Origin: Eledone cirrhosa
Taxonomy: Eukaryota
NCBI GenBank assembly: GCA_964016885.1
Contig: OZ024745.1
Location: forward strand, 38,440,001 to 38,504,000
Direction: 5' to 3'
Length of the DNA stretch: 64,000 nt
The notes under the pieces were generated by a model. It was not told where the DNA came from. It ran no database searches and was given only the letters and a program-made list of their open reading frames with translations. Position numbers and translations under genes: made by a program. This document shows positions 2,255 through 63,039 of this stretch, piece by piece (the first letter of the stretch is position 1; the number at the start of each line of letters is the position of its first letter).

Positions 2255-4020
2255 ATTATTATTATTATCGTGTCAAGCTACATCTACAATCAGGCACGAT
2301 CTTTTTTTCCTCGTCCAAAACCACCAGGCCAGGCCTATTGTTTTCTAATGTCTTGTCTATCTGTATCCTAATATCGCATACCACCTTCACCTGATCTTTT
2401 CTATCACCGACTCTGGTTTATGCTCATACCACTTCTCAGAAGGTGGTAAGTTGTTTACTTTGCATAGATGCTAGTGGATCACCAACTATTACATAATTTC
2501 TCCAGCCTTTATAGTGAGTCTGGGCTAGGTACTTACACTCGGATACAATGTGAGCCACAGTCTCCTCTCACTCTCCACAGATCATACACAGTGAGTTAGC
2601 CTCTTCCTTGTCAATATGATGTTTCACCCACTTCGTTCTGAGGTCTTGCTCTTGCGCAGCCATTAGCATTCCTTCTGTAGCCTTTTTAAGGTCTCCTCTT
2701 TTTAACCAGTTCCATGTCTGTGGATACTAAATTCCGTTTTCTTAAAGAAGGTGCTATGAAGGGATTTGTCAAGAACGATGCCGTTCCTCGATCTTGTTAT
2801 TTCCTCCTTGGACATGCCCTGGTCCATTGTCTTCTCCTTCAGTACAATTTTGAGCATTGGTTCCCTACTGTCAGTCACGGATTTGTGCATGTTGTTTTTC
2901 TCCTCTATGCTGATAAGACCTCTTCCACCTTCAGATCTCTTTAAGTAGAGTCTATCGACATCACTCCTCTTGTGAGGCATGTTGTAGATAGTCATTAGCT
3001 TCCTAGTCTTCCTAAACATTTCGTTTTGGTCAGCAACAATCCATTTCAGAATTCCCGCACTGTACCTAATAATAGACTAAACTCGGGAATTTACTGCACT
3101 TATGACATTCCTACTGTTTAGATGTGGTTTTAATATGTTCCTTACTCTCCTTATGTATTCATTCTTTTCGATTCCTTCATTCTTTTGTTCTTGTTGTCAT
3201 ATGCCTCCAGAGCACCTAAATATTTGTATCCGTCTTCAGTGTAAATTTCCTTTATCATCTCACCTGTTGATACCTGGATTCTGTTGCTTCTGCATCACTA
3301 GGACTCTACACTTATTAACACCAAATTCCATACATATATCATTGCTGAAAATACGGGCAGTGTCAACAAGTACGTCCAACTCCTTCTCACATTTCCCAAA
3401 GAGTTTACGATCGTCCATGAAGAGGAGGTGGTTGATGATAAGCTCTCCTCTTTCCAACTTTTATACTGCTGTCACTTTTCACAATATGACGAACAGGGTT
3501 ATCAGGGGAGGACAAACAACGAAGGGGACAAACTATCTCCCTGGAAGATACCTCTCTTGATCTTCACGCCTCCCAAGAATTCTCCACCTGATGTTAACTC
3601 TGTTTCCCAGGACTTCATACTTTTGCTTAATAGCTTTCTGATGTTATCTGCCACCTTGAAGATCTCTATTCTTTTGGTTATCCAAGAATGAGGTACCATG
3701 TTGAATGCCTTTTTATAATCTATCCATCCCATGGCAAGACCAGTGTGGCTCCTCTTGTAATTCCTCATTAACTTCTTATCAATAAGTAACTGGAATTTTG
3801 TACCACGGGACTTCTTTCAGCATCCGTTCTGTGGAGGTGATAGTAGATTTCCTCAGACACAATGCTTGTTAACAGTTTCCACATTACGGATAGACATGTT
3901 ATAGGCCTATAGTTGGTAACATCCTTACCCTTTATTCGATCTTTCATTACCAGAACTGAGGTACCTTTTGTCAATCAATCTGGTACTTCACCCGACATCA
4001 AGCAGTCATTTAACATGGTT
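2255..4020 (-). mobile_element. R4/Dong-clade RLE retrotransposon, decayed, 5'-truncated
   Basis: Minus-strand ORF pieces: NYRPITCL, WIDYKKAF, GIFQGDSLSP, HLLFMDD, RLYLKRSEGGRGL. CCHC region near 2540-2590. (TAA)n tail at ~2255-2268. Confidence 0.88.
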
Positions 4021-10479: not shown

Positions 10480-12970
10480 CCTTCTTTTTTGCCACAGTAG
10501 TGTACAAAAGATGGGACTTTACAAGACGTGACGGCGGGTGTTTTACATAAAAATCATATAACTTTAACATTAATTAATAACAATAAACTATATATAATAA
10601 AATAACAATTGAAATCCCCAATAGGGGGGAACCTTACTGCAGGGTTGTTTTACACCCCGTGGATAGAACAACTCTCAACACCAGGAACACGTTTTGTAGG
10701 TGTTCAAGTCTTCTCTCTGTTTATCTTCCTCCACCTACAGTTTTATATACAGAGTCGGCCCATTCACTCGGGCCATTTTCGCCACATTCACCCACCTTTC
10801 AACGAATTTACTGGGGTGTAGCACCTCTCTCTCTCCACTCTCACCTTCATTCTGAAGTCGTACTTAAAGAAGGTGATTAGTTGTTGTCAGGAGAGAAAAG
10901 TGTTTGCCCTCAGTCCTTTTAACATCGTCCACCATATACCTCTTTCCTCATAGCCACCAGACAGAGGAAAGACGCCTCTCCTTCACCCTTAAAGGAAGGC
11001 GGCGGTATGATACTCATGATGGACTCGGCTGACAACTGGAGGCGTCCTACACGTGACAGTAGCTGTTCGACATAATTCCACAAGTCGGTCAACAAGGGCA
11101 CTGAACAATTGCGTGCAGAACTGTTTCGATGTTCTGCTCGCCTCTTGGACAGGTCCTTTTGGCAGGGTCTCTGCCAGAGTGTCCGTGCCTGTAGATTTTG
11201 TCTCGAACTGGTATAGCTACTCGGTACAACTGCCAGTCCAGAGACCTCCGGATGTTATCGAAAGGCCCTGGACGGAAATTCCTCCCGAAAGACTGGTCAG
11301 TTCGTCCTCCTCGATGCCTAGAGTTTCCCCGAGAACGTCGTCGCACATATTCTCCACTAAGTGGAGTCTCCGCTGATTACCGTTTCCGCTTGGAAGAGGG
11401 CTGTGAGCGCCTGAAGTCACTCGAGGTGCCAGGCAGCCATTTTTGATATTCGCTTGATCCTAGATTGCAGCTCTGTTAATGAGACGAGTTGTGGAAGAGC
11501 TTGTCTCACAAACGACAGCAACACCCGTTCACCGGTCAGGAATACCTGGAGGTGACTTAGCCTCAGAGCGTGTTTGCGTATCATCAACCAGTGTTTGCAC
11601 ATGCTTGCGCATGCCCAGCCCTCCATTAGAAGGGTGTTGACAGCAGATGGATCTCCTAACCAATGGACCCTGTTTCTTCCAGAGGAACCTGAAGAGTAGG
11701 CGTTCGATTTTGGTGAGGTATTCGCGGGGATAAGGCACGACTGTCAAGTGGTAATAGATGAAGGATGCTGTGTAAGAGTTCGCCACCTCCGCTCTACCTT
11801 TCAAGGAGAGTTTGCACTCAGCCCACTTCTGGGTGAGTGCAAACACATTCGCCGTGACCTCGTTCCAGATCTTGTCCACCTGGAGATCTGGACCAAACCA
11901 GTTCCCGAGCAATTTCACCGTTCCTTCCATGCAGCATCCAACGACACTGTCGGAAGGCCTGAATTTCCCTCTCCATGTGCCGAGTTGCAAACCGCCAGAC
12001 TTGATTGGGTTTAGTCTTGCTCCTGTCAACGTTTCGTATTCCTGTAATAGGTTGCCAATTACCCCGATTTCCGAGGTTTTCGACACCATTACGGTTATGT
12101 CCTCGGCATAGGGCGACGCTGCACTCCGCAGTCCTGGTTCAATCCGGATGCCCTGCAACAGCTCCAACTTCCGCTATACTAGCTCGAGAGTCAGTACATA
12201 CAGAATGGAGGAGAGAGGTCATCCCTGACGGATGGAACGCATGATTTGGAATGGCTGCGATAGATAGCCATCCACCTTGACTGCAGATGATGGTGTGCAT
12301 GGCATCCTCTGAATACGGGACCGAAGCCAGCCACCTTGAGAACAGCTCCGAGTATTGATGATCGACCCTATCAAATGCCTTAGATTGATCTAAATTGATC
12401 AGAGCCCCACCGAAGTCAGATTTACACCCGACCCTCTCTATGATGTATCGCATGAGGTGGAGCTTGTTGTGTATGGACCTGGTCAGGTTTGCACACATTT
12501 GCGCTTCCCCTACCAGGTTCTTGACGACAAGAGCCAGCCTCGCTGCTTAACACCTTGGCCGAAATCTTTAACTCTGTGTTGAGCAGTGTTATGGGCCTGA
12601 AATTGCTTATCTCATCCCCCTTGTTCTCATCTTTCCTCATCAGCGTTACTAGACCTCTACCTACAGGACAGGGAATGCTCCCGTTCTGCTGCCAGTTGCA
12701 GTGGACCGCTTCGAGGACGCCATAGAACAAGTCTGCCATGCCTATGTAAAACTCATAGGGTAGACCATCTAAACCGCGTGATATGTTTCCCGCAGCGGCC
12801 TAGGGCATCTTCTATTTCGCCCGCTGTGACGGCCTTTCGCAGCTCTCTGCATCCGTGCTCGAGAGTTATGGTACGCCGTCGAGGTAGGAGCTGCAGTCCA
12901 TCATCTCCCTCTACGTTCCGCATTGCCCGAAAAAGTTGTGCAAAATGCTGCTGGAATGCCGTGCACAGCT
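10480..12970 (-). mobile_element. L1/Tx1-like LINE ORF2, 5'-truncated, frameshifted
   Basis: SNFRPITLLNTELKISAKVL, LDQSKAFDRVDHQY, PYAEDITV, GGLGM. C-terminal LCLVAMRKEV matches VAMAKEIVWW in the 4-6.6 kb element. Confidence 0.87.
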
Positions 12971-15076
12971 AGTGTATAGATCGATAGCAAATCAGTGGTT
13001 TTGGAAATATTACTACGGCGTTACTTCATAGTAAAATACACCAAAAAACTCACATAATTTAGACCAAGAATACGTGACCGTTACACATTCAATCAGTAGA
13101 TATGTAATGACTGAATAGATATCACCACTGATTGCCATAGTTGCGCAATTCCCGGCTGTAGAATATTTCAGTAGAGATAATCATCTTAATACTAAAACTA
13201 AATAACACTGCTCGCACCATAAATCTGACATCCTGTACCTCTAGATAAACGTAATTTATGGCTTATGTGTTTCTTAAACGAATTGCCGAATGCGTTCCTT
13301 ATTACCCTTGTAGTTATGAACGTACAGAAATGTTGGATATCATATGAAATTATATTGGCAGCTATACAGAAATAATATAATGCTTCCATACATTGAAACG
13401 CTTAAATGCCCATCCATTCGAATATCAACGAAACTTTCTTCCTAAGTACATACCTTTCTACCTATCTCCCTTGATAGCTGCCTGCCTCCTGGTTCTCTTC
13501 CTCCATGCCTCTATCGTAAAAAGATCATTTTCCATGTCTGTTTGTATGGATGGGTGTATCAATGAGTGTGTGTCTGACACACTTCATCTATCCATCTCTC
13601 CATTTCAAACACACATATATATATATATATATATATATCCATCTACCTATCTATCCATCCATCTATCTACTTTCTTCTGTTTCTCTGTATGTGTATGTTA
13701 GTGCTTATGTGTGTATGTCTATGCATCTACTTATCTATATATCTATCTATCTATCTATCTATTCATCCATTTGTATATATTTTTCATCTAATTATCTAAT
13801 GTTCAATTGTAAATTATTTTGAGTTCATTTCTGCCCCCTATGTCGATACTCGAGTATCACGTATGGCTTTAGGACGGCCGGTGTTCAAAATTAACTATTT
13901 GGATATCTAAACTATACATATTTCACCTGTTATTTATCCAAATTGTTCTATCAGAAACCAACGTAATTATCTTTATATTCGTGTCGACAACGTTGTAGAA
14001 CAACAAATGAAATGGTATCTACATAACTCTAGTTAAAGAGAAATGAACGATCACATAAGTAGAATACCACGTGTATAGACTGAGGATTGGACAATCTCTG
14101 TTGGATCACCTCATTACCTATTTGGATCTTGGCTATAACACTGATGATCTGATAATCACTAATGAATGGCGTTCTTGAAACTATGTGGCTTTTGTTTATA
14201 AGGGGGTTATTGTTTTACAATATTAGGATTTTTTCTGAAACAAAGAATGTAAACCCATGTAGGGATTGTGAATAGTTTTAAAGTGCCGTTGATGATTTAT
14301 GTGAGCTAGAATCAAAGACATATCAATCCGGTGCATAACTATAAATTAATCATTTGCGTATGCAAATATGCATTTATGCCCCTGTGAGTTAAATTTTCTT
14401 TTTATATATGTGACACACCAGTAAATTATTTTAAAAGATATGTTCTCATGTGATGACTGGAAAAATGATTCTGTCTTAATTTAAATGTTCTTCATATATC
14501 ATTTACCATAATATTCTACCAAGCATTCAAAGATTACATAATAAATTTCATTGTTGACAGACGTTTAGAAATTCGAAAAGAACTACATGGGAAATGAGGG
14601 TTATTTTAATTCACGTATTACTAATAAAATACCGATTTTCTCTGAATATCAGGGAATATATGGTTGACTAAATGGTTAAACAGATGCATGTGGTTTTGTT
14701 AGGTTCAGATTTCGATTTAAAGATCTCTGAATATATGATGTAATCTGCAAACCGGTTTCCACCAACATGTCAAGATAGGGCAGTTATAATCAACTTTCAG
14801 TTATTTACTAAATATCAACAGCCCTTTGTGAAAATCTTCCTAATACTTATTCGAATCAAGTTTCATAAAAGCCATAATTAAATACAGAGAAACATTAATC
14901 AAAATTTAGCAACTTAATTAATTTAGCAATTCAATTAAACCCATGTTTTGATTTAGAGCCCAAAAAGCATTATCCGTAGCCACAAATATAATGACCTTAT
15001 ACGCGATTCATGCCATGTATGTGGTGAATAGCAAGGGATATTGTCCAAATAGTACACTTATAAACCAATATGCTCA

Positions 15077-15720: not shown

Positions 15721-16359
15721 TACTAGCAGTGGCACCCGGCGTTGCACGGGATAATGTATTGTGAAATATATAACCGCCTTAGCTAAGCTTAGTATTGCAA
15801 CAACCACGGCTGGCAAAGAAGTAAGGGTCTGGTGGTACGTAAGTAAGCAACAGTGTGGCTTAAAACGTGAGGAAGAGGTTGTGAGCACTTACCAACTGTT
15901 TGGGGTATGAATGTGAGATTTGTCTTGAGCAAAGGTGGCATAATAATCGGAGGCAGCAGACAGCGAGACCTATAGACATATATTATAAGAGTGCGTTCTG
16001 GATGCAGAGCGTATTGTAGGAAGTGACGTAATGCAGACAGCTAGACATACAGAAATATATTATAAGGGCGCGCCGAGGTCGACTTTGCCTTTCATCCTTA
16101 CGGGGTCGATAAAATAAAGTACCAGTAATGCACTGGATAATTGCTGGCCTTGTGCCTAAAGTAGAAACAATTATAAGGGCGCGACGCTATATTTATGTAT
16201 CATCTAAAAAGAGAAAGACTAAGAATTATAGAGAGATATCGCTAAATCGCCTAATGCCGTCCCTAGGGCATTGACAATTTGAACTTTTTTTTTGCTCAGA
16301 ACACTCCCTGAAACATAAGTATTACATGTGTAAAGTTTGGGTGCGTCTCTCGTTTTAGG
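15721..16359 (+). mobile_element. Helentron-associated (HINE/DINE-like) non-autonomous element, interrupted
   Basis: Starts tactagcagtggcacccggcgttgcacggg, the same terminal motif and hairpin as at 45827. Internal catgtgtaaagtttgg motif. Cut by the PLE at ~16360. Confidence 0.55.
16073..16169 (+). mobile_element. 5'-truncated SINE with 14-bp target-site duplication
   Basis: attataagggcgcg at 16059-16072 and at 16170-16183 flanks the core plus tail. Confidence 0.85.
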
Positions 16360-17938
16360 GTGGTGGTGGAAGGTGCAGTACGCCACCATCACGCATACAG
16401 ACAGACAACAGGTTTACCCATGGTATCCAGCCTATCGGGCCTGCTGGCCATCACCTACATGAACCAGCTAGAATGCCGAGCCCTCAACACCTGCCATCCC
16501 CATGCCTTCTTCACCCGATATGTAGATGACATACTCATCCTCACATCATCCCGTGAGGAGGCAGATAAAATATACACAACATTCTCCAGCATGGACGCCA
16601 GTATAAAGTTCAGCATGGAACACCCCGATGACCGCGGATCCTTATCCCTACTGGACTTCCAACTCAGGGTAACAGAGGAAGGCAACATCCACACCAGCTT
16701 CTATAAAAAAGCCGCCAGCAGGGACCTGTTCGTACATTTCAGATCGGCCCTCCCACTCGGTGCCAAGTTCGGATACATAAGGAACGAACTGGCACGTATC
16801 CGGAACAAATGCACCGCCGCTAGAGACCGAGACACACACACCACACATTTCCTGGAAGTACTCAAACTGAACGGATACACGACATCCACCACAAACCGTG
16901 CCAGAAAGAACAGAGGCAACCACACCCGAGGCACTAACACTTGCTTCCTGAAGCTCCCACACTTCAGTGAAGAAACAACAACAGCCATCCGCAGAGCCAT
17001 CAGACGAGAAGGACTAGATATCCAACACACTCCACCAGAAATGACAACTGCTGCAGACTAGCCAACTGCCCCATCAACGACACAGACCTATGCCACCAGG
17101 CTTACGTCGTATACAGACTAGAGTGTGACAAATGCAACAACTTCTACGTAGGTAGCACCACCAGACCACTCCACATAAGAATACAAGAACACCTCAATAC
17201 TAACGCTTCCTCATTTAAGAAACACCTAGTTAAATGCAAAAACACCGACAAAACCATAACAGTTAGGATAGAAACTAAGGAAAGAAACCTCGGCAAGCTT
17301 AGAATTAAGGAAGCACTAATTATAGATAAAACACAACTACCTATCAATAATAGACTAGAACTCAACACCCAATTTATAACCTGATAGGGCTTCTAGCCCC
17401 ATATTTACACACCCCATACACACACACGCACGCACACACAAACACACACGCTTACACCTCCACTTATTCTCTCTCACACATACACACACAAAACCAGTTC
17501 TAACACCAGATAACACCTATCCCTCACATTTACGAATAAACTTATCATCTCACACACACACACACTCACATACTTACACCTTCATGCATTCTCCCACACA
17601 CTTAAACAGGCATGTATATAAAAAAAACGCAAAAAAACCCTAAACAAATCCCTTTTAAAGGGAGACTACTCTTTATCCACCTAATTTTAACTCTTTGACA
17701 AAGAGATAGAACAGATACTCTATACTATTTCCTGTCAGCATGGCTTGGCAAGATATTTAGAACGCTGGTTTGAGACCTTTATTTCCCTCTGAAGAAGAGA
17801 TATTATCTCGAAAATTAAGGACGTTTAAAATAAATCTAAGGTAAAAGACCAATTGTCAACAATATCTTTTGCAATTGCATTCTTTTTTCTATGTCCATAC
17901 CTGCATTGATTTGGCTTTATTATACATATCCAAACGTT
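16360..17938 (+). mobile_element. Penelope-like element, 5'-truncated (RT + GIY-YIG + 3' pLTR with HHR)
   Basis: RQTTGLPMVSSLSG and TRYVDDIL in the RT. After a frameshift: Cys-rich linker CRLANCPINDTDLC, then VVYRLECDKCNNFYVGSTT..RIQEH..EALII..NN. Ends in (TA)n. Confidence 0.92.
17784..17822 (+). ncRNA. Minimal type I hammerhead ribozyme in PLE pLTR
   Basis: tccct CTGAAGA a-gagat att atctc GAAA AT TA agga. Stem III reduced to the palindrome AATT; stem I is short. Confidence 0.7.
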
Positions 17939-17988
17939 TATATATATATATAATATATATGTGTATATATATATATATATATATTATA

Positions 17989-18060
<72 letters not shown>

Positions 18061-18065
<5 letters not shown>

Positions 18066-18286
18066 AACAAATAACGAAACGAAATTAAATTTCGTTTCGT
18101 TTGTAACTCACTTTTGTATGACTGACGCTTAAACAGTTAAGTTAAAAATGTACATCCACATATGTATACTGAAATACTAGTATGCATATGAATACACACA
18201 CGTATACATATGTAGATGTACCGAGTTTTTCACTGGTCACTTTACTGTGAGTGTCCAGCTATTCTGTATGTAAACACACAGACAAA
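18061..18286 (-). mobile_element. Fragment of the 465-nt retrozyme-like family (see 38313-38959)
   Basis: Near-identical in reverse to 38797-38959 continued by 38490-38541. Flanked by (TA)n. Confidence 0.88.
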
Positions 18287-23105: not shown

Positions 23106-23305
23106 NNNNNNNNNNNNNNNNNNNNNNNNNNNNNNNNNNNNNNNNNNNNNNNNNNNNNNNNNNNNNNNNNNNNNNNNNNNNNNNNNNNNNNNNNNNNNNN
23201 NNNNNNNNNNNNNNNNNNNNNNNNNNNNNNNNNNNNNNNNNNNNNNNNNNNNNNNNNNNNNNNNNNNNNNNNNNNNNNNNNNNNNNNNNNNNNNNNNNNN
23301 NNNNN
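23106..23305. other. Assembly gap (200 N)
   Basis: Run of N next to (TA)n. Confidence 1.
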
Positions 23306-30008: not shown

Positions 30009-32068
30009 GATAAAATAAAATAACAGGAGGCTGGACTGGTGTAAATCCGTGAAATGTGTATTATACTATGATCATTTCAATGACCGGGTTCCATATGAAT
30101 CCGGTGATATCATCAGGTATTGGAATATAACAAAGGAATATGTAAAAAACCATGGGTCCGAAAAATCAGAGACAGAGACAAAGAGGACGACTGACCAACT
30201 AGCTGCTCTGCCAGTCGCCCTCAAAGTGGTGGCACTGAATCTACTAATGAACATCTGGTGAGGGGGCGAAGGCTTATAATGCACTACCACCTCTCCGTCA
30301 AAGAAAAAGTGGAAGAAAGAAAGTGAGAAAGAAGTCAGTGTGAGGGTCACACTACATTCATGCTAGAAAATGCCGCGAACAAATGCTACTCCAAAGAATC
30401 TATAATGGGTGTCTGTATGGTCTAATGTGTGAACCGAAGATTGGAACGTTAAACTTATGTTGCGAGTTATAGGATGAAATTAAATTAAATTAAGAATATT
30501 AAATTGCAAAATGATAAATTGAAAAATAAGTTATTAGAGAATTAGAGGTTATGATAACGAGATTTATTTATTTAATGAAGTTACGGAGAGAGTCTTATAT
30601 GAAAAAATGTATCTCGATAAGACATTAGGATGGGATATAGAGTAAAGATTTCGATTGTGATTCCCAGCCAGCTGCCCCTTTATTAATTTTTTTTATTATT
30701 TCATTAATGTATATTTTTTTTATTATTTTATTATTTTATTATATTTTTTATTATTTTATTAATGTATTTTTATCAATAGAAGGATGGGGGAAGAAGGAAA
30801 TATAGATATAAAAGATCTTACGTCTACATTTGCAAGCAGGGGTTAACCATTACAAAATCGGCAAGTGGGGTGTTATAGCCCTAGTCTACCCCCCGGGTCA
30901 TTATGGGGTTTGAGGGCGAGGTAAGTCCTACGCAATCTGTGTTTACATGCAGTTACCAGTTCATCTTTCTTGTTTAGGAGTTGGTCCGTCGAAAACAGCA
31001 TTTGTAAAGTTTCCTCCGAGCATAAATTGCACGGACGGCGTCCTCCCGTGTAAGAGTTGGCTCTGGACAGTAAGCTCCAAGTGAGATCATAGGTAATATT
31101 GTTATCCTTGAGGTGCCATATGTGGCCCGAAAGTGTAGTGGTGCCACGCCGGGCCGGGTTTCGGAAGGTATGTCTGTGTTGGTATAGCCGTGTCTTGAAA
31201 CCACATGCGGTTAATCCTATATAAGCTTTGTTGGAGGTGTCCGTCCTCACGTTGCACTGGTAGATCACATTACGATCTCTGCATCTGTTGTCGAGGGGGC
31301 AAATGGATCCATCAGGACAGTTGCACCTCCTGGTCGGCTCTCCACTGCTATTTATGTTATTTCTTCCATAGGGGTTGAGTTTTTGTTGTTAGAGGAGACG
31401 ATGTTTTGTGCAAAGTTTGGTGTGGTGCTGTAGGAGAGTTTGATGGTATTTTTGTTAATTGTGTTGTGGTAGCCGTGTTGTAGTGGGAAGTGTTTTTCAA
31501 TGAGCCTAAAGAAGATTTTCCCGATAGGAGTTGCGGGGAGGATTGAACCATGTTACATTGCGTCAGCGGCGGTGTCGCCTGCTGGTTCCGCTAATGGAAG
31601 CTGGACAGTAGGATATTTCCTCCCGGAAACCACTCCGCTTGAGGGCCTGGTTGTAATAAGGCGCATCTTCCTCGAATATCTGCTCATTAGCTGACAAACG
31701 AGATATGCGGAGGGAGATGTTTTTAACCAGGTTATTGGTGATGTTCCTAGGATGGTTTGACCGGCGGTGGATGTAGTGCAGGTTGTCGTTGGGTTTTCTG
31801 TATGGGTAGTACAGATCATTGTCGAGGTCAAGGGTAACGTCCAGGAAGTTTCTCGGGTCAGGGACGTTTGTAGGTTTATTTTAAATCCCCAGTCGCGGAA
31901 GAAGCTGATTAATTGTTTACGGACCCGATCTGTACTACTGGAGTTGTACCCTTTAAGGGTAAGGAGCCCATCATCACGGTACAATCCACCGCCGAATGCC
32001 GGAAACATATGCGTGAGTTTGGCTATTAGGAATAATCCTATAAGATCTGTGACCTCAGCCGAATCCGT
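30009..32068 (-). mobile_element. Penelope-like element, 5'-truncated, frameshifted (second PLE family)
   Basis: DSAEVTDLIG, GGLYRDDGL, PYRKPND in the RT. Linker CNC..CPL..C. GIY-YIG IYQC..AYIGLT..R..H, then CNLC.EE, LLNK. The 3' UTR ends in (TA)n at ~30008. Confidence 0.92.
30063..30120 (-). ncRNA. Type I hammerhead ribozyme in PLE 3' pLTR
   Basis: atac CTGATGA t-atcaccggattc atatg gaacccggtcat-t GAAA tgatca TA gtat. Stem III palindrome ATGATCAT. Confidence 0.87.
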
Positions 32069-32864
32069 AGCGGTGGTATCTTTGCTTTAATTTCTCGTAT
32101 ATCAGTATTTTTGTGTGTGTGTGTGGGGGGGGGGGATTCTGAATTAATTTTCCGTATCAAATTTTACATATACTCTGTACGAGCATTTATGTAGTTTGCA
32201 CTAGAATTTGTGTATCGTGGCGGCACCCTTAGAGATAGTATTAGTATTCTTTTTCGGGATTCTGAATTATTATTCCGTATTAGTTTATTTTTTTTTGCAC
32301 TGGGTGGTTGCTGGCCTTGTGCCTGGAGTAGAAACCTTTATTTCGTACTGGTCTCGGGATTCTGAATTATTATTTCGTGGTTGTTTCTTTAGTATTTTGG
32401 ACCCCACTTGTTGACCCGTCACCGTAAGATATACTCGGTTGATTAATTATACCTCTTAAAAGGGTCTCATTATAATACCGTCCCACGTAGTAAACCTTTC
32501 TTTAGTCTAGCAGTAACAGTGAGATACTTGATAGCTGTCCTTAGGTCATTGTAACCAGAAATTGTTTTTTTTTACATTTAATTGTTTTTTAAAACTCTTA
32601 GTATTTTTCTACATATTTACAACATATTGTTTTACTTATTGTTTCGAGTTCCTCCCCCTCCCTAGTATCTTCTTTGACCTCCTGCCCAGCTGTAGTTGGC
32701 ACTATCACCGCACGACTGGGTTTCCTCCACCCCTCTCCCTCTTTCTTCTACTGGCAGGTTCAGCTACCCCTTCCCTCCACAAATTACCATGATATAATTA
32801 TTATCTCTCAACAACAAACTTTTGACCAATCCTTGTGACAATCATTTTTACCATATATGGAATT

Positions 32865-33051
32865 ACCCCCTGAGAAGCTCGGCTATTCATATACCAGGAT
32901 AAAAATGTTCATTTAGTCCAGAATTAGCCGTCGAAATGGCTTGAGCTCAGCCATCGGTGTCCTACTCGTTCCTATTACCCACTCTACTACCCTAAGTATT
33001 GAGTACTTTGGTGCGTTATGGTCCACCTGGTTCCTTACCACATTTCCTTCG

Positions 33052-33053
<2 letters not shown>
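32865..33053 (+). mobile_element. PLE-type 3' terminus with degenerate HHR (32865-32960); family also at 37408-37569, 38994-39085, 40653-40864
   Basis: acccc CTGAGAA g..cggcta/tagccg..c GAAA tggc ttgagctca gcca TC ggtgt. Shared tail gtgcgttatggtcca..tggttcctt..caca.ttccttcgtt(AT)n. Confidence 0.75.
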
Positions 33054-33089
<36 letters not shown>

Positions 33090-37260: not shown

Positions 37261-37602
<342 letters not shown>

Positions 37603-38312: not shown

Positions 38313-38954
38313 GTTTGTAACTCACTTTTGTATGACTGACGCTTAAACAATTAAGTTAAAAATGTACATCCACATATGTATACTGAAATACTAGTATGCA
38401 TATGAATACACACACGTGTACATATGTAGATGTACCGAGTTTTTCACTGGACACTTTACTGTGAGTGGATGTACATTTTTAACTTAATTGTTTAAGCGTC
38501 AGTCATACAAAAGTGAGTTACAAACGAAACGAAATTTTATTTCGTTTCGTTATTTGTTTTTATCGTCTCCGCTGAACCGGTACGTACTCACGCTCTATGC
38601 AAATTAGTCTGCCCACTACTAATTTTCATAGAAAAAGCATATAACGATATGTGCTTTTACGATTCTCTAGACAGGCCGGAAGATAGGTAAATATTGCTGA
38701 TGAGATGTAACAACATCGAAACTAGTCCACTATTCCTGTCTGGCTTTCTGGAGAATAGAGGAAAGGTGTTTCCTCGAAAACCAGTATGACTCTAAAAACC
38801 GGTTTGTCTGTGTGTTTACATACAGAATAGCTGGACACTCACAGTAAAGTGTCCAGTGAAAAACTCGGTACATCTACATATGTACACGTGTGTGTATTCA
38901 TATGCATACTAGTATTTCAGTATACATATGTAGATGTACATTTTTAACTTAATT

Positions 38955-38959
<5 letters not shown>
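38313..38959 (+). mobile_element. Retrozyme-like element: 465-nt monomer with terminal redundancy and inverted 5' piece
   Basis: gatgtacatttttaacttaattgttta occurs at 38468 and 38933. 38313-38467 is an inverted copy. One HHR. Ends in (TA)n. Confidence 0.85.
38690..38734 (+). ncRNA. Type I hammerhead ribozyme
   Basis: aatattg CTGATGA gatgt aaca acatc GAAA ctag TC cactatt. Stem I extends outward (agatagg/cctgtct). Confidence 0.92.
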
Positions 38960-38996
<37 letters not shown>

Positions 38997-39082
38997 CTTT
39001 TTCTATTACCCACTCTACTACCCTAAATATTGAGTACTCAGTTGCGTTATGGTCCAACTGGTTCCCTACCACAATTCCTTCG

Positions 39083-39122
<40 letters not shown>

Positions 39123-40579: not shown

Positions 40580-40652
<73 letters not shown>

Positions 40653-40656
<4 letters not shown>

Positions 40657-40864
40657 AAACAGTATGACCCCGACGGCAGAGCGCAAGCCGTTTCGACGGC
40701 TATTTCTGGGCTAAATTAGAATTTAGCCCAGAAATAGCCGTCGAAACGGCTTGAGCTCTGCCGTCGGGGTCATACTTTTTCCTATTTCCCACTCCCACAA
40801 CCCTCAGTATTGAGTACTCTAGTGCGTTATGGTCCATCTGGTTCCTTAGCACAATTCCTTTGTT
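40653..40864 (+). mobile_element. Copy of the 32.9-kb family with ~65-bp-arm hairpin
   Basis: 40653-40784 is a near-perfect palindrome containing only the HHR 3' half (GAAA cggc ttgagctct gccg TC ggggtc). In (TA)n. Confidence 0.87.
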
Positions 40865-41375
40865 ATATATATATATATATATATATATATTAGTGTTTTA
40901 TATATTTAACAAATTTATGGTGAAAATATTTTGCTAATCCTTTTTGTCACTTTCATAATTTTTAAGTCTAATGACGCAAATGGTTGTATCCTTGTTATCA
41001 CTTGGGAAACCTTACACGTATGGTGAATTGTAGCGGATAAACCCTGCAAGATTTCCATGTTTTCCTGTCCTAACATTACAATTGTTAGACACCGGGACAC
41101 ACATTGCATTACAAAGGAATTAGAAAGAAAATAGATACTAGTTTTTCATTGACTACACATTAGAGGTTTCTTTCCCTTATACGTTATAACGTTATCATAA
41201 GTTAATGTTTAGTTAACTATCATGAATTTATACTTATACTAACTTTGTCCATAGCTGGTGGTGATGGTAATACTCTCAGTACCTTTAAAACTGATATTAT
41301 ATGTATTCATAATCATCAAATACAGAAGTACGCCACCCATTACATTTGGTTTGGATAAAATTGAGTTCATTATAT

Positions 41376-42895: not shown

Positions 42896-43115
42896 CAATA
42901 TATATATATATATATATCAATACTATTATTGGAATTATCCCTTTAAATGAGTAGATACTTTCTAACGAGGAAAGCAAGCTATAGTCCTACTTTTATATAA
43001 CAGAAGCAGGAAAGAATTCATATGTTAAACTTTAAATAAGTCTTCAATAATTATACTCATCTCCTTATAGATTGTATTTAGGAAGTCTTTTCTTATTTTG
43101 TCATTTTTTTTTACC

Positions 43116-43729
43116 CGAATTATTAGCAGTACAGTGTTCGGCAAACATCGCTGCCCTATTTGTTCAACACTGACAAAGGAACGATGAAATAGTTTCTAGC
43201 TTATATCTGTCTTCAGCTATACATATATGTATGTACGTATACATACTTACATTTAAGTATCAGCCGTACTAAGAGTGAGAAATGAAATTTCATTTTTTCC
43301 ATTTATCGCGTTCGGTACGCCCGGCCGACTAAGTCACTCGATATACAAAATAGGCTGCTCAGACGTTAATATGCATACGAGAAGTATATACTTTCAAACG
43401 TTCAATCAACTGAGAGGAAGGTATACGGTGCTGATGACAGCTAAGAGGCTAGAAACTAGTTCATCGTTCCTTTGTCAGTGTTGAACAAATAGGGCAGCGA
43501 TGGTTGCCGAACACTGTACGGCTACTAATTCCGGCTGTTTGTTTACAAACAATCCGAGCATTATAATAAATGTTCGGTAAAACCATACATACATATATAT
43601 ATGTGTGCATGTATGTATGTATATACATACTACTGTATGTCTGTATACATATATGTATGTACGTATACATACTTACATTTAAGTATCAGCCGTACTAAGT
43701 GTGCGAAATGAAATTTCGTTTCTTCCATT

Positions 43730-43732
<3 letters not shown>
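43116..43732 (+). mobile_element. Retrozyme-like element: 426-nt monomer with ~88-nt direct terminal repeat and inverted 5' piece
   Basis: 43218-43306 is repeated at 43644-43732. 43116-43216 is the reverse complement of the HHR region. Ends in (TA)n. Confidence 0.85.
43425..43467 (+). ncRNA. Type I hammerhead ribozyme (degenerate mirror copy ~43181-43216 -)
   Basis: acggtg CTGATGA c-agct aaga ggct-a GAAA ctag TT catcgt. Extended stem gttcaa..ctgagaggaa / ttcctttgtcag..ttgaac. Confidence 0.85.
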
Positions 43733-53769: not shown

Positions 53770-56700
53770 TCCATTAATGGATTGTACTTGTAATTTCCTA
53801 ACTAGTTGTGGTCTTTCTGTTCCTGTGAAATCTAGCTTCTCAAGATTTGTATTGAGGCAGTTACTAACATATCACAGTGCCCTAATAATCACAGGCATAA
53901 ATCTGAAGGTGTAATCATGGTGGAGTATCTGCAGATTCCTCATCAGTTCTGCATACATATTCTCCTTTTCGCTAATCTTTGATATTATATTGGCATCTGT
54001 TGGGCAGTTATTTCCACTACTGTGCATGTTTTCTTCTGCCTGTCCCATATCATAATATCTAGTCTGTTATGCCTGCATTTTATTGCGGTTTTTAGTGGAA
54101 CATTCCACCAGTACTCTTTCATACTATGTACATGGATATCTTCCACATTGATGTAGCTTTTAATGTGTTTATTATCGGGGCTATCTTTTTTACGTATTGC
54201 ATTGTACAGTGTTTTGGCCACTACATCATGCCTCATAGGCAGATAGTACCGCGATGACATATTTGGACAGCTGCTGATGATATGAGTGATATCTTCAATG
54301 TTAGTTCTGTAGAGTCTGCACTTGTTATCACATCTAGGTGTTTTGCCTGCATCCCTATCTCTTTTGTGAATCCGGCATTTCGTGTTAATCTCCTGTTCTT
54401 GCATTGCAAAAGCGTATCCTTCAAAGTGGGAGCCAATATAGCAGTTGTTGGTCCAAGATAGAATACTTTTCTTATCTATATTACTCTCACTCTGGAGCTT
54501 CCTGGCAACATATCCATGCATGATTGTTTACTGATAAGCATGCAGTTTTTCATCCATGGGTTCACTGCGATACTGCCGAGCGATTTCGTTGGGTGTGAGT
54601 TTTTGATTATCATATAGGGAATATCTCTCGAGGAGTTCCTTCCCGACTCTCATTGTCTTATCTGTTTCATGCGGATAGATTTGCTCGAGAGATGGGCTCC
54701 TACGCTTCGAGGTTCGTAGATGTTGTCGGAGGGATATGATGCGACATTCAAATGCTGTCTGGACTAATGTTAGGCCTTTGCTTCCCTGCTCACGTTTCAA
54801 ATAAAGGCGGTCTATGTCACTGTTGATGTGGAAGTTTGCAGTGTTGTTTTGTATTTTTCGAGTTCCAACATCAACTACTCGGATTTCGCCTATCGTCCAA
54901 TTGAGTATTCCAAACGTTAGTGTTAGGAGAGGCACAGCAAACACATTGTGAGCCACTGTTTTGTTTTGTTCAGAGAGATCCGTTGACCAAATCCTTCTTA
55001 ATCGGGTGTAGTATTCCCTGGTTATGGCGTTCCTTATTGCAGATACCATTATAGGATATGTTCTCATCTATCCCCAGGTATCTGTAGCACTCCTCATAAG
55101 ATATCGATGAAAGAGTTAAGCCATTGATGACATTGTTGCTAGATTGGGTTGTTGTTTTTCCACGCTTTACAGTCATATATGAGCATTTATCTTGGCCAAA
55201 CTCCATTCCTATATCCTTTGAGAACGTTGTAACCAAGTCAATATTTTTCTTCATCTCATCCATGTTCTTGGCATAAAGTTTCAGATCATGTACAAATAAT
55301 TTATGGGTTAGATTCGTATTTCTGTCCTCCTGTGGGCCAATGATGTATCCTTCACAATTCTTGAGCAGAAAGGACAAGGGGTTTAACGACAGGATGAATT
55401 ATAACACAGAGAGACTGTCTCCCTGAAATATACCCCTGCGATATTTTATTTTATCAGTGAAAATAGAGTCCTCCCTCTCTGTGTTTAAGCTTAGGATAGT
55501 TGCCCAAGAAGCAGAGAGCTTCTCTATGGCTCTGATAATAATGTTTGGAAACTTTAGCAAGTTGGGGAACATAATTGAAAGCTTTCCTGTAGTCCAGCCA
55601 GACTGTAGCCATATTCCTCCTGTTGTCGCACCTTCGACATCGCAGTTTTGTTGATTGGGAGTTGTTCAGCACATCCCCAAACCCCTTTCTTTCCAGCTGC
55701 TTGTTCATCTGTGATGATGTTATTATTTTCACAGTGAACTTCGAGGAATAGGTTCAGGCAGGCTGTATACATCTTATACATAATCTTCTGGCATGCAATG
55801 GGTCGGTATTTTTTTGCCTAGTGGGTGTCTTTGTTCTTGGGTACTAGTAATGTTTGTGCTAATGTCAACCATTCTGGTATAAGTGTATCTCCCTTAAGAA
55901 CTTGTTGGTAGATGTCAGTAAAATACCTCCGATAGAATATCAGTTTGTTGTACCAATAGCCGACAATCATGACTCTTCCTGCTGTTTTCTTATCTTGGAG
56001 TTTTTCTATCACAGTCTCAAGGGTACCCTCACTTATTTCGTATGTTTTTGTTGTAGTCTAGGAGCAATAGTTCTTTCGGATTTCTTTTAGCCACACTGCA
56101 TATTGGTTGAAATTCTGCTTTTCACCCCATATTTTGCTCCAAAAGGAATCTATGTCTTTCAGTGACAATTATTATTTTGTTCTTCATATCTCTATAGACT
56201 GATGTTTGGTTTCGTCTGAATCTTTTATTAAGCACTTTTCTCTCATCTACCTTCTTCAGGTATCGGCGTTTTTCGGTAATAGAACTTAATTCTTGTTTGA
56301 GGGTGATCAGCTTATATTGAAGAGTTCTGGTTATACTGTTACCAAACATCGTCTTTATTTTATTTTTCACTTTTTGTTGGTGAGGAGTGAGGTTTATTTG
56401 TGTTTGTTTGCATGAAAGGAGCATTGTCACATATCCTATGGTTTTTCGTAGGTCTGCAATCTTTCTATTTTATATATGATGGTATTTTTGGTGGTGTTTC
56501 TTTCTTGTTAATATCTCTGCTATCACCAAGATAATGCTTCACTGTCGTTGCTAAGGCGTTGATTTGCCAAAATATTGGGGTTTGTATCCCTCGTAAATAT
56601 TCATCCCCTATTTCGTCAATATCACGTAATATTTCATTATTTGGTTTTCTATTAAATATTTTCGTTTTAATACGTTCAGCAAGAGATATTTATACATTTA

Positions 56701-57375
56701 TTAATTTCTCTCTGGAAGATTTCGTTGAGGGAAATTTTCAATTGTTTATACTTTTGTTTATTATCATTATCGTTAGTATTTTCCACAATGGTACACGTAG
56801 TGTCAAATTTCTTCGATTATTATTATTATTTCTTCGATTATTATTATTATTTCTTCGATTATTATTATTATCGATAGTGTTTTCCTCAGCATTCGAGATA
56901 GACTTAGATGGTACAGGGGGTCTCATGTTTCTTACAAGCATAGTTGTATCAAGTCATTGTTCGACCTGGCTGCTAGGAAGTCTAGTAGCATGGCGACATG
57001 TAGCACGTGTGGTTGATCCCATGTTTGTTGTGGGGTACTTACAATTAATAATATTTATCTTATTTTGCGCTCAACAAACGTCGCTTGTTGCCATAATTGT
57101 TTCGCTGTGAAATAATTTAGCTCTCGGTGCATTTCGTCCCAGTGTAGCTTCATTCTGTTCGTATAGCCAATGGAGGGATTGCTTTTTGCCATTTTATAAC
57201 AATTAAATAAATCATCATTAAGTTCGCAACTCCAAGAGAAATGCGATTTATAATTTCTGTTTCTTCTGTAGCTACAACCGAATGAAGTGTGTTTACCTTT
57301 CTCGTTGTTTCTCTTCGATACTTCCTTAATGTTGTTGTTGATGTTGTGTTCAGCCATGCTATTTGTAGCAAATCC
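53770..57375 (-). mobile_element. Near-full-length R4/Dong-clade RLE retrotransposon, decayed
   Basis: N-terminal W..ELN.DL..CY..GY..RM..W domain, KYRPIAC, WLDYRKAF, GIFQGDSL, HKLFVHDLKLY, RLYLKREQG, CRL..EDITHIISSC..RHD, DIMIWD..VEIT endonuclease. Confidence 0.9.
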
Positions 57376-57714
57376 TTGTAAAATGAATTATGTATTTAGT
57401 CGGATATCTCTACGCATTCGAATAAAAGGTGTTTTCAGAAGGTATAGTTAGAAGAATAACCAGTTATTCAACATGACTGTAGTTGTGGCATTACTGTCGG
57501 AGATAGTATTCATCTTAAATTTAATAAATAGTCTCCCACGCCAAAATATACGACTGATCGCGTTGACTGTGTGTGTGTGTGTATATGGGTGTATATGTAT
57601 GTATGTGTGTATATGTATGTATGTGTGTATGTATGTATGCATGTATGTATGTATATGAGTATATAGATAAACGGCGTTTAACTTGTTTTACAAGGTTTTT
57701 GTTTTGTAATCGTA

Positions 57715-58272: not shown

Positions 58273-58463
58273 AATTGAATTTAAACTCATATATTAAAAA
58301 CAATCTGAACCCATTTTTTTAAGAGCAAATACAATAAGAACTTTGTAACGTGAACTGACGTGAACTGGCGCTAAATGTATTATTTAGTCATCAACCACGA
58401 AATTACATTTCTAAAAAACCTACCCTTTCGAGCCACTTTTCTCCACATAAAACAGAAGTAACA

Positions 58464-59900
58464 GATGTTTCTAGGTTGGTTAGACCGGCGGTGGATGTAG
58501 TGTAGGTTGTCGTTTGGTTTCCTGTATGGGTAGTGTAGATCATTTTCGAGGAAATTGACTCGGGTTAGGGACGACTGTAGGGTGATTTTAAATCCCCAGT
58601 CCCGGAAGGAGTTGATTACGTGTTTATCAACATCTACGACAGAATATATTTGGCCTTGGGACTTTGGCGTATATCTCAGTTTAAAGCTATCAGAATCAGG
58701 ATGAAAATGTGCTTTATTACAATCAGGCCTCCAGGCGAAGCGGCTTTTGGGAGGAAATATGCTTTTACCCAGCCTCACCAAGCGGAACCAGCAGGAGAAG
58801 CCGCCCTGACGCCATGTAACGTATTTCAACCCTTCCCACAATGCCGAGGTTGCAACACCAATCGGGAAAATCTTCTAAATACTCCTCGAAAAACACTTCC
58901 CACCACAACACCGCTACCACAACATAATCAGCAAAAATACTATCAGACTTTCCTACTGCACCACACCCAACTTCGCACAATACATCGCCTCCTCAAAAAA
59001 CAAGAAACCCAACTTTTTTGGAAGAAACACCCTAGACATTAGTGGAGAGCCGACCAGGAGGTGTAACTGCCCTCATAGATCTACGTGCCCCCTCAACAAC
59101 AGATGCCGGAACGTGACGTAATCAACGAATGCAACATGAGGACGGAAAACTCCAACAAAGCCTGTATAGGATTAACCGCTGGTGACTTTAAGACCCGGAT
59201 CTACCAGCACCGACATACGTTCAGAAACCCAGCCCGGTGACATGCCACTACACTTTAGGGCCACATCTGGGACCTCCAAGATAATAATATCACATACCAT
59301 CTTACTTGGAACTTACTTTCCAGGGATAACTACTACACGGGAGGACGCAGTCCGTGTAACCTATGCTCAGAGGAAACAATACAAATGCTGTTTACGAAGG
59401 ACCACTCCTAAACAAAAAAAGACAAACTTGTAACCCTATGTAAACACCGATTGCGTAGGAATTACCTTGCCCTCAAACACCTTCATGACAAGGTTGGGCA
59501 GACGATGGCTGTAACATCCTTCTTTTCCCCATTAGCAGAACAAGATAGGGGAAACCCCATCATACATATGTAGATGTAATTCTTTTCTGTTTTCCCTTTA
59601 CCTCTACTTCTCACCTCATTCTACTCCCTCACATCTTTCTTTTCCTTTTTCCACGTTCGTTTACCCTGAGGCAGCCCGTCGGGCTTACGTAGCGTCAGTA
59701 CCCCCACCCCCGTAAATTCTATATAGCATTAACCGAAAACGCAATACAAGCTAAAAATATAGCAGCTGTTTTAGACTCTAGTTTTTTTCATTATATTTTT
59801 ATTATTTAATATTTTTATATTATTTTTTATTTATTATTTTCTAATTTTTTTATTTCAATTTATTAACCTTTTAAATTTTTTAATTTTTGAACTTCCCATT
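58464..59900 (+). mobile_element. Penelope-like element (family of 30009-32068) with 5' inversion
   Basis: 58464-58627 (-) encodes FRDWGFKI..PYRKPND..PRNI. From ~58668 the (+) strand continues into the linker and GIY-YIG, homologous to 31710-30870. Confidence 0.88.
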
Positions 59901-59902
59901 CT

Positions 59903-61751
59903 CAGATTCCTCAAGACTGGCGTAGCAGCATCATCATTAACTGCTACAAGGGTAAAGGAGATGCCCTAGATAGGGTTAACTATAGAGGCATTAAATTAAT
60001 CGACCAGGTAATGAAGGTCACAGAAAAAGTAATAGCGCAACTAATCAGAGAGCGAATTGATCTAGATGAAATGCAGTTCGGGTTTGCGTCAGGTAAAAGT
60101 ACCACAGACCCTCTTTTAATTGTACGACAACTACGGGAGAAGTACCTAGCTAAAAGTAAACCCCTATACTTAGCTTTTGTTGACTTGGAGAAAGCCTTTG
60201 ACAGAATCCCCCGCTCCATTATCTGGTTGGCTCTTAGAAAACTAGGTGTTGATGAATGGCTTGTGAGAACTATACAGGCAATGTATAAAGAAAAAGTCAG
60301 CAAGGTTAGAATTAACAACGAATATAGTGAAGAGTTTAGCGTAAAGGTTGGTGTTCATCAGGGCTCCGTCCTTAGCCCCCTCCTATTTATTATTGCCCTT
60401 CAGCCTATAACAGAGGAGTTCAAGACCGGCTGCCCATGGGAACTCCTATACACAGAAGATCTAACGCTCATAGGTGAATCAATGGCCGAACTAGAGAAGA
60501 AATTCCAAATATGGAAGCATGGCCTAGAATCAAAAGGCCTTAAAATTAACCTGTCTAAGACTAAAGTTCTAGTTTGTAGGAAGGAAAATAGGGCACCAGT
60601 CCCATCTGGAAAATGGCCATGCTCAGTGTGTAGGAAAGGAGTAGGCAGAAAGTCCATGTTATGTCCCAAATGCAAAGTATGGGTGCATAAACGATGTTAT
60701 GGGATCACAGGTAAGCTAACTAAGAATATAGATTTTATATGTGGCCGGCGCTCTGGTACCATAAGTAGCAGCAAGTGCCCACAAATACTAGCTCATTCCA
60801 TGGCACAGATGGTTCTATAGAAATAGTGGACACCTTCCGTTACCTTGGTAACAAAATCAGCAGCGGTGGAGGGTGCTCCGAAAGTACAGTAGTTAGAGAC
60901 AGAACGGGGTGGAAAAAGTTCAGAGAGCTTATACCACTATTGGCCGCTAAAGGGTTCTAACTAAAAATGAAAGGCAGGCTGTATGATGCCTGCATACGAA
61001 CAGCAATGTTGCATGGCAGTGAGACCTGGACATTGTGTGCAGAGGATATACGCAGACTGGAGAGGAACGAAGCTTGCATGCTCCGCTGGATGTGTAATAG
61101 TAATATACGTGAACGGCAAACCATAAACGAACTAAGGGAGACATTAGGAATAAGAGGGATCATATGTTGTTTACTCGAGAGAAGACTACATTGGTAAGGT
61201 CACGTGATGCGCATGATAGACGAAAGCTGTACAAAAAAGTGCAGGGCGATAAAAATAGACGGTAGCCACCGAGTAGGCAGACACAGATAAACCTGGGACG
61301 ACTTGCTAAATTCCGACCTCACACACACCTCTCCAAGACAATGTCACTGGACCGAGATCTTTGGCGATACACAGTCATACAGAAGACCCGCTTTGCCTAA
61401 GTACAAAGCGAAACCTACAGTCAGTAGGCACCTCTAATAAAAATACACCCCGGACCCACTACCCCCACCCTGCCAATGTAATGGTACCACATCATCCAGT
61501 CCGAAACAGATGAGGGCGTGTAGGTGTCACGACAAAAAACACACAGTCCACGCTGTAATGTTGCCGTGTAGATAACACGGTAAAAACCTCCCAGTCCACA
61601 CTGTAAACGTGGTTGGTGTTAGGAAGGGCATCCAGCCGTAGAAAACCCGCCAGACACTCCTATACGAGCAAGACAACCAATCTTGCCTCAAGTGGGAAAA
61701 TTCCCGTCCAAAGCCATGCTAGCATGGAAGATGGACGTTAAACGATGATGA

Positions 61752-61828: not shown

Positions 61829-61833
61829 CATAT

Positions 61834-62980
61834 CAATATATATATGGATGTATATATAATGTATTTTGCAATACACTTTATGCTTAATTAAAAGCATTTT
61901 CTCACTACTCTAAAACCATAGCATACGGTCTTCAAAATGCTTTTAATTAAGCATAAAGTGTATTGCAAAATACATTATATATACATCCATATATATATTG
62001 CTATTTCAGAGCTCCAATTCTAATTTTTAATTTCTGCCTGACCAACAACCCCTCTGTATAACCAGTTCCTGATTATTTACTAGAATTCTACAAGAATATA
62101 ACATCAGTGATCTCGGTAGACAGGAGGGAGTAGTTAACCTTGATAAGCATCAATAAATGCGAAACAAGGCCTTGTCGGCTTATCTCCCCTGTTTGCTGAG
62201 ATTAAAGAAAGTGGATTTGACACTACTCTAAAACAATAGCATACGGTCTTCAAAATGCTTTTAATTAGGCATAAAGTGTATTGCAAAATACATTATATAT
62301 ACATCCATATATATATATTGCTATTTCAGAGCTCCAATTCTAATTTGTAATTTCTGCCTGACCAACAACCGCTCTGTATAATCAGTTCCCGATTATTTAC
62401 TAGAATTCTATAAGAATATAACATCACCGATCTCGGTAGACAGGATGGAGTAGTTAGCCTTGATAAGCATCAATAAATGCGAAACAAGGCGGTGTCGGCT
62501 TATCTCCCCTGTTTGCTGAGATTAAAGTAAGTGAATTGGTCACTACTCTAAAACAATAGCATACGGTCTTCAAAATGCTTTTAATTAAGCATAAAGTGTA
62601 TTGCAAAATACATTGTATATACATCCATATATATATTGCTATTTCAGAGCTCCAATTCTAATTTTTAATTTCTGCCTGACCAACAACCGCTCTGTATAAC
62701 CAGTTCCTGATTATTTACTAGAATTCTATAAGAATATAACATCAGTGATCTCGGTAGACAGGAGGGAGTAGTTAGCCTTGATAAGCATCAATAGATGCGA
62801 AACAAGGCCGTGTCGGCTTATCTCCCCTGTTTGCTGAGATTAAAGTAAGTGAATTCGTCACTACTCTAAAACAATAGCATACGGTCTTCAAAATGCTTTT
62901 AATTAAGCATAAAGTGTATTGCAAAATACATTATATATACATCCATATATATATTGCTATTTCAGAGCTCCAATTCCCAA

Positions 62981-62986
<6 letters not shown>
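61834..62986 (+). mobile_element. Retrozyme-like tandem array: ~318-nt monomer x ~3.4 with inverted 5' piece
   Basis: Units start at 61903, 62221, 62541 and 62859. 61834-61900 is an inverted fragment. (TA)n on both sides. One HHR per unit. Confidence 0.92.
62774..62818 (+). ncRNA. Type I hammerhead, U3:A8 core variant (also 62136-62180 and 62456-62500)
   Basis: agcc TTGATAA gcatc aata gatgc GAAA caaggcc(t/g)tg TC ggct. Long extended stem I: tctcggtagacagg..ggag / ctcc.cctgtttgctgaga. Confidence 0.88.

Positions 62987-63039
<53 letters not shown>

Follow-up and report, generated by a model that had tools for sequence, protein, structure and literature searches.

Paired, fixed-end insertions of a hammerhead retrozyme into (TA)n tracts of Eledone cirrhosa, likely copied by a Penelope reverse transcriptase from an RNA circle

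Introduction

Penelope elements (PLEs) have been described with 5′ truncation, an inverted truncated copy, a tail of 30-40 bp at one end and a bias towards (TA)n (Craig et al., PMC8557442). In work on a PLE protein, Frangieh et al. (PMC11167929) showed nicking of both strands of AT-rich DNA and initiation at two neighbouring internal sites, which define the tail. For metazoan non-LTR retrozymes, a circular RNA template for a PLE or LINE reverse transcriptase (RT) was proposed by Cervera and de la Pena in 2020 (PMC7229834), and a preprint by Li, Clavereau and Pollet (2026, 10.64898/2026.07.22.740005) proposes PLE copying of retrozyme circles, with the mechanism still to be characterised.

Here, we report a non-coding hammerhead repeat of Eledone cirrhosa, analysed at one locus of a 64,000-nt stretch of contig OZ024745.1 (the window, i.e., the whole stretch of DNA that was analysed) and across the genome. 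The repeat is like the metazoan non-LTR retrozymes in its non-coding, low-GC tandem unit with one type I hammerhead, in forming dimers to multimers, in its highly paired RNA and in occurring alongside PLEs, whereas its unit of 466 nt exceeds their RNAs of 170-400 nt; Xenopus retrozymes have a homologous pLTR and none was found for the 466-nt unit. With the EN+ PLEs (Neptune, Naiad, Poseidon) it has in common the 5′ truncation, the inverted 5′-truncated copy, the tail at one end, the two initiation sites and the (TA)n bias, but it is without an ORF, its hammerhead is canonical and not minimal, its tail is 69-74 nt long (30-40 in theirs) and its arms reach up to about 16 units. The non-autonomous Chlamys PLEs such as MRC1, as presented in PMC8557442, are alike in being non-autonomous and in their multicopy head-to-tail insertions; they have 3′ ends common to autonomous families, whereas no sequence-related partner was found here, and the same paper presents a PLE group of Chlamys elements without canonical hammerheads. 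The newt satellite 2 and the schistosome hammerhead satellite are alike as hammerhead repeats with an internal promoter, which is cited as an snRNA type for Pol II in newt and as Pol III in schistosome (PMC2220036); the motif found here matches U6, not U1/U2.

In the covered parts of PMC7229834 and of the 2026 preprint, fixed paired ends, two-armed insertions, (TA)n targets and edits carried by all units are not described for retrozymes. A literature search over titles and abstract openings, with supplements and subscription journals outside its scope, did not find paired ends or an edit barcode in a retrozyme.

Experimental procedures

The genome comprises 3.0 Gb in 1,796 contigs. Loci of the family were drawn in three ways, i.e., as the best DNA matches, as the first hammerhead matches of contig 1 and as the first tail matches of contig 1; the tail-picked loci carry an A end (site A, below) by construction. 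Excluded before any count were L047 (both ends outside the stretch), L106 (overlapping L032), L126 (a duplicate of L125), five two-arm loci at stretch edges and all arms under 60 nt, and L048 and L049 were counted as a single locus. For the PLEs, 150 of 10,595 GIY-YIG candidates were scored and 50 loci were examined, together with 30 of a second PLE family.

Results

The sequence-only reading of the window had described a 465-nt monomer (38468-38932) followed by a repeat of its own start, with an end-to-start junction that two other pieces read straight through, and had taken this as circular permutation of copies derived from a circular or multimeric RNA. The features of the locus, as we now read them, are as follows.

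38313..38467, minus strand: left, inverted arm, unit 369 to 58
38465..38467: GTG overlap of 3 nt joining the 5′ ends of both arms
38465..38959, plus strand: right arm of the two-armed insertion, 1.06 units, from unit 463 round to 27
38495..38563, plus strand: Penelope-type "tail" (unit 28-96), bounded by site B (22 or 27) and site A (94-96)
38958..38993: target tract of (TA)n bordering the B end
18061..18286, minus strand: independent insertion into a (TA)n tract, single-armed and 5′-truncated, from unit 336 to site A

A BLAST comparison of the doubled 38468-38932 monomer with the window recovered all three reported pieces. Positions 38933-38959 are exactly unit positions 1-27, i.e., the start of the monomer again, and are followed by (TA)n; 18286-18063(-) aligns to doubled-monomer positions 336-559 (219/224 identical) and 38467-38305(-) to positions 369-531 (159/163, with the clean match ending at 38313), both crossing the junction 465|1 as had been described. 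The two arms meet at 38468 via the GTG overlap, and reading through 465|1 therefore shows only the tandem-repeat unit: the "monomer start" at 38468 is the inversion breakpoint of the window copy, and the 27-nt terminal repeat of the right arm marks site B. Circularisation would create one new junction only, at the ribozyme cut site, and neither partial piece (18061-18286 or 38313-38467) spans it, so that these two pieces are no proof of a circle.

The right arm reads through the tail, which contains a 13-bp hairpin, and terminates at the fixed inner site B in (TA)n. The left arm is without the last 38 nt to site A and without any (TA)n, adjoins an old dispersed repeat and was probably shortened by a later deletion. 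The insertion at 18061..18286 has five differences from the 38468 copy and contains no hammerhead. No ORF of at least 100 aa was found over the locus. At 465 nt, the window copy is one T short of the common genomic unit (466 nt); the window locus is an ordinary, slightly decayed copy.

Genome-wide, the 31-nt ribozyme core has 1,633 exact matches and the family counts roughly two thousand copies, with a unit of ~466 nt (roughly 463-469 nt among subfamilies, which are about 87-99% identical to the window unit) and a GC content of 37% (171/465). Each unit has a hammerhead, the tandem repeats are low in GC and the RNA is self-paired, and the ORF scan, together with unit-only copies ending in (TA)n, points to an element with no protein, LTR, PBS or PPT; judged at the level of sequence, the family has everything that defines a non-LTR retrozyme. 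All 40 tail-picked loci hold unit sequence only, with no LTR or ORF-flanking pLTR upstream, which does not bear out the linear LTR- or pLTR-flanked element that the sequence-only reading had set against its own view, and in a BLAST map of these loci no unit arm runs on into a common PLE body. A plant-type LTR retrozyme (type III hammerhead in LTRs, 4-bp TSD) is contradicted by the type I topology, the tandem units and the lack of an LTR. An autonomous PLE was likewise rejected, since the locus has no ORF with RT plus GIY-YIG and the tail-picked loci are unit copies only.

Two more distant retrozyme families align over the whole unit, one of them in the window.

43114..43732: second retrozyme family, 426-nt period, hammerhead about 43432-43462

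This second family is two-armed (43114-43217 on the minus strand) and collinear with the 466-nt unit, has a GUU cut site and the same tail layout, and ends after a similar tail hairpin in (TA)n. The third was observed at L171:7045-7980.

The ribozyme itself lies entirely in the right arm.

38679..38749, plus strand: type I hammerhead, core 38697-38727

Its core combines CUGAUGA (38697-38703), a stem II of GAUGU/ACAUC and GAAA-CUAG-UC, with a very short and palindromic stem III (ACUAGU); the hammerhead is canonical, as had been noticed from the letters alone, with a predicted cut after 38727. An Rfam scan of the window hammerhead gave no match at the gathering score, and below the cut-off placed Hammerhead_HH9 at 38679-38749 (E 4.3e-4, 28.6 bits, cut-off 52); Rfam microRNA matches were discarded as low-complexity chance matches. 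The core is nearly invariant in 108 loci (variability 0.17% vs 3.2% elsewhere in the unit), a conservation that is inflated because some loci were picked by exact core match. In stem II, roughly one locus in three shows an A-U/U-A swap. Two bases set the window copy apart from the 108 other loci: at 38730, in stem I, it has C and all 108 have A, which produces a private U-C mismatch at pair three of the stem, and at 38672 it has C and all 108 have a purine. The cut site reads GUU in about 40% of units. Hammerheads with a GUU cut site cleave more slowly. As for cleavage in related systems, only one of nine Xenopus elements cleaved in vitro (10.64898/2026.07.22.740005).

That the monomer is highly self-paired was confirmed by folding (z -9.2; 0/100 shuffles equally stable). 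Across the family, 98.5% of cells are paired vs 32-47% when the structure is slid, and there are 4 two-sided (compensatory) changes vs 0-2, in a test that is biased by a structure derived from one family member.

The 3′ ends of the arms are fixed at two sites. Site A (unit 93-97) is the end point of 51 arms and site B (21-28) that of 52 in a set of 106 arms drawn from 61 loci, the remaining 3 ending elsewhere; 95 of the 106 ends run into TA-rich DNA. For the loci picked by hammerhead only, 46 of 48 arms end at A or B. Exact counts over the whole genome are 2,181 for A ends, 1,039 for B27 and 697 for B22, with 0 for the controls. Two-armed loci number 97 in the full set of 139, and the 92 complete ones divide into 83 A+B, none A+A or B+B, and nine with one odd end; the window locus is among these nine, and at least L039 of them is a parsing artefact.

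The 5′ ends, in contrast, are uniform round the unit (219 arms, KS p 0.20), with no excess at the predicted transcription start (4 vs 7.5 expected). We rejected the idea that copies begin or stop at the ribozyme cut site, within 6 nt of which lie 7 of the 219 5′ ends vs 6.1 expected. Random permutation of both ends is ruled out by the fixed 3′ ends, and the circular permutation read from the end-to-start junction is not borne out; fixed ends, which had been named beforehand as the outcome contrary to it, are found at the 3′ side and not at the 5′ side, where ends are scattered. L1-type twin priming is a poor fit, both outer ends being fixed sites. We take the paired fixed ends to be the footprint of a Penelope "tail". 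The arms of one locus differ by a median of 0.45% vs 3.3% to other loci, the own partner arm being closest or tied in 54 of 69 loci, and we read both arms of a locus as copied from one RNA template.

Upstream of the hammerhead, the unit contains a candidate U6-type promoter.

38596..38607, plus strand: TATGCAAATTAG, candidate upstream promoter element, unit 129-140
38640..38644, plus strand: TATA-like box, 44 nt downstream of the motif (U6 genes: 47-49 nt)

With at most one mismatch, the upstream element matches a motif at -77 to -79 in four of five distinct U6 upstream regions, and it has no match in 14 U1 or U2 upstream regions (at least 4 mismatches). When the unit was shuffled 200,000 times, a degenerate form of the motif arose in 97 cases, and 109/125 loci retain the motif intact. 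Spacing between motif and TATA-like box is 3-5 nt shorter than in U6. From the position of the box, transcription would start at about 38670-38675, directly ahead of hammerhead stem I. The unit also contains two T5 runs, which are expected to terminate Pol III and so argue against easy Pol III read-through; the first of them (unit position 10-14) is broken in several independent ways in about 39/127 loci, as if read-through were favoured. In this genome, U6 genes form tandem clusters (at least 30, 1.8-kb spacing; G000:C19:31780605-31840331), U2 genes do so too (at least 40, 2.2-kb spacing; C3:307349256-307453739), and TATA-like boxes are present in the U1 and U2 upstream regions, from which the U6 motif is absent.

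The nature of the template can be approached through variants that distinguish one unit from another. At 22 vs 4, A>G outnumbers T>C (ribozyme strand) among 50 rare variants that every covering unit of a locus carries, and at 16 vs 3 among those fixed in at least three units across both arms, while variants confined to a single unit (n=462) show no such bias (45 A>G vs 43 T>C). Merging of sites common to loci leaves 18 A>G vs 4 T>C (p 0.002); compared with C>T, the ratio is 18 to 4 against a 45:61 baseline (p 9e-4), so that tolerance of G-U wobble alone is an insufficient explanation. At L110, three A>G changes cluster in the promoter motif; every covering unit (14-15) has them, and two of the three occur in the 5′-most partial unit as well. 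Such changes reach the 5′-most partial units. The sequence context fits ADAR in part: a 5′ U precedes 10 of 18 A>G sites (p 0.03), with neither a 3′ G excess nor a 5′ G depletion among them. Since the A>G bias extends to all units and both arms, it is likely that one edited RNA monomer was re-read into every repeat, and the variants fixed in every unit would most simply come from a single edited monomer read many times.

A linear template has to be weighed at this point, namely a mostly uncleaved multimer transcribed from a homogeneous source array and primed by a PLE at two sites, with arrays later made or homogenised by unequal crossing-over and gene conversion. Five of 66 informative A+B loci have unit-specific variants in both arms at the same unit number (seven variants, none A>G, vs four off-register events; in L037, unit 1 differs from units 2-4), a pattern that is not obtainable from a monomer circle and that indicates multimeric templates for those loci. 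A looser count puts 8/9 loci in register vs 2.7 expected (p 3e-4), two of them being weak. Periodic blocks are seen in long arrays, where period-4, -5 and -7 patterns (L061, L047 and L094) represent growth after insertion, and such growth could also homogenise units. The GUU cut sites, with the slower cleavage to be expected of them, are also in keeping with an uncleaved multimer. Unprocessed RNA is the main in vitro substrate of the anole PLE (PMC11167929). Editing of a multimer, though, would go unit by unit, yet A>G and T>C are about equal in single units over about 454 unit-equivalents, while it is the all-unit variants that are skewed and whose edits extend into the 5′-most partial units; moreover, the source array of L110 would have carried a damaged promoter motif. 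Unit patterns common to different loci, which would betray a source array, gave nothing convincing. We thus regard a predominantly multimeric template as unlikely, and, by our estimate, most templates were circles and multimers made a minor contribution. The origin from circular or multimeric RNA that had been proposed at the outset would then stand, by way of the genome-wide A>G bias and the scar-free cut site, while the junction reasoning that led to it fails.

The cut site bears on whether such a circle was covalently closed. It is crossed by 58 of 73 tail-picked A arms and shows 1 indel in 3,006 cells and no scars, and this free crossing without scars or stops is more in line with a covalent circle than with a nicked one. 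A cleaved linear monomer, held by hammerhead stem I as a nicked circle whose nick a telomerase-related RT jumps repeatedly, would yield the same all-unit edits and tandem products, and PLE RTs are sister to telomerase (PMC8557442); given the scar-free site, the lack of a 5′-end excess there and the accumulation of known retrozymes as covalent circles (PMC7229834), we consider this nicked form quite improbable. Contigs from four sequencing runs of unrecorded type yielded two observations that are mentioned for completeness and are not used as evidence: in a run from another organism, a single contig of 495 nt goes back by 465, and in one small run a single haplotype predominated.

The genome is rich in PLEs whose long ORFs combine RT and GIY-YIG and which end in (TA)n; their CxxxC-CxxC linker suggests Neptune, an assignment by motif only and not by tree. 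The 80 PLE loci examined represent a small fraction of those in the genome, and among the matches listed for them no PLE end homologous to the unit was found; unit matches near PLE loci turned out to be separate retrozyme insertions and not partner ends. One Neptune-like family (L160, L164, L165, L168 and L177) terminates in (TA)n at two positions separated by a few dozen bases, and its 3′ region contains a motif resembling a minimal hammerhead; its architecture, though not its sequence, makes it a candidate partner. A detached pLTR of an autonomous PLE, or a plain satellite that spread through events at the DNA level, in either case with no RNA cycle of its own, is a highly improbable account of the unit, for although Xenopus retrozymes are homologous to pLTRs (10.64898/2026.07.22.740005) and the PLEs were sampled in part (150 of 10,595 scored, 80 loci examined), the tail-picked loci are unit sequence only, no arm continues into a PLE body, and the strand-biased A>G, the conserved core, the compensatory stem changes and the paired fixed ends require an RNA step.

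Several other elements of the window deserve a brief record. At 16312-17960 (plus strand) lies a 5′-truncated PLE; its RT and GIY-YIG matches are spread over two frames, its 3′ region has a motif like that of minimal hammerheads, and it ends in the same (TA)n tract as the retrozyme copy at 18061-18286. Fragments of another PLE-like family, with no Pfam match, are found at 30873-32086 (minus strand) and 58380-59042; at least 150 genome matches of this family were scored (92-100% identity); its open frames reach 998 aa, and about 1.2-1.3 kb of 3′ sequence precedes (TA)n. A short repeat that is non-coding and folds back at its ends, situated between (TA)n tracts (32911-33059, 37407-37570, 38995-39090 and 40652-40870), looks like another PLE-type non-autonomous element, and its copy at 38995-39090 adjoins the very (TA)n tract into which the 38465..38959 arm runs on the right. 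Also between (TA)n tracts, a ~319-nt tandem repeat of about 3.4 units (61830-62987) has a short inverted arm (61830-61900) and a two-armed layout like that of the retrozyme; a scan found no canonical hammerhead in it. An assembly gap of 200 N (23106-23305) falls within a (TA)n tract, and degraded LINE-type RT fragments, one with a PHD-like finger, occupy 59891-60820 (minus strand), 11417-12972, 174-960, 2702-3816 and 53985-57387.

Discussion

We think it likely that the locus is an insertion of a young non-coding hammerhead repeat, copied by a PLE RT from one RNA circle into (TA)n. For the fuller picture, in which a self-promoting (U6-type), self-cleaving and ADAR-edited circle is copied over many turns by two Penelope RT subunits from both strands of a (TA)n break, our preference is only slight. 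In this scheme, the internal U6-type promoter of one unit would start transcription just ahead of the next hammerhead, and read-through to a second hammerhead would free a monomer RNA, which a host ligase would close into a circle and ADAR would edit. A PLE protein, probably as a dimer, would then nick both strands of (TA)n, and its RT would initiate on one and the same RNA, at sites A and B, copying from 0.3 to many turns, after which the two cDNAs would be joined at short overlaps. Tandem copying would restore a promoter upstream of each start site. Some long arrays may have been enlarged later by unequal exchange, and a minority of insertions likely come from uncleaved multimers.

The family supplies priming sites (22/27 and 94-96), a (TA)n target and a candidate promoter, and its editing barcode tells circle templates from multimer ones. 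With these defined, the PLE copying step becomes directly testable in vitro and in other genomes. The value of the data lies in this family-level record of the mode of copying and not in the single window locus. If the proposed cycle is true, circularity would let an element with an upstream Pol III promoter retain that promoter, and the genome itself would record rolling-circle retrotransposition, each insertion being a molecular barcode of a single circRNA.
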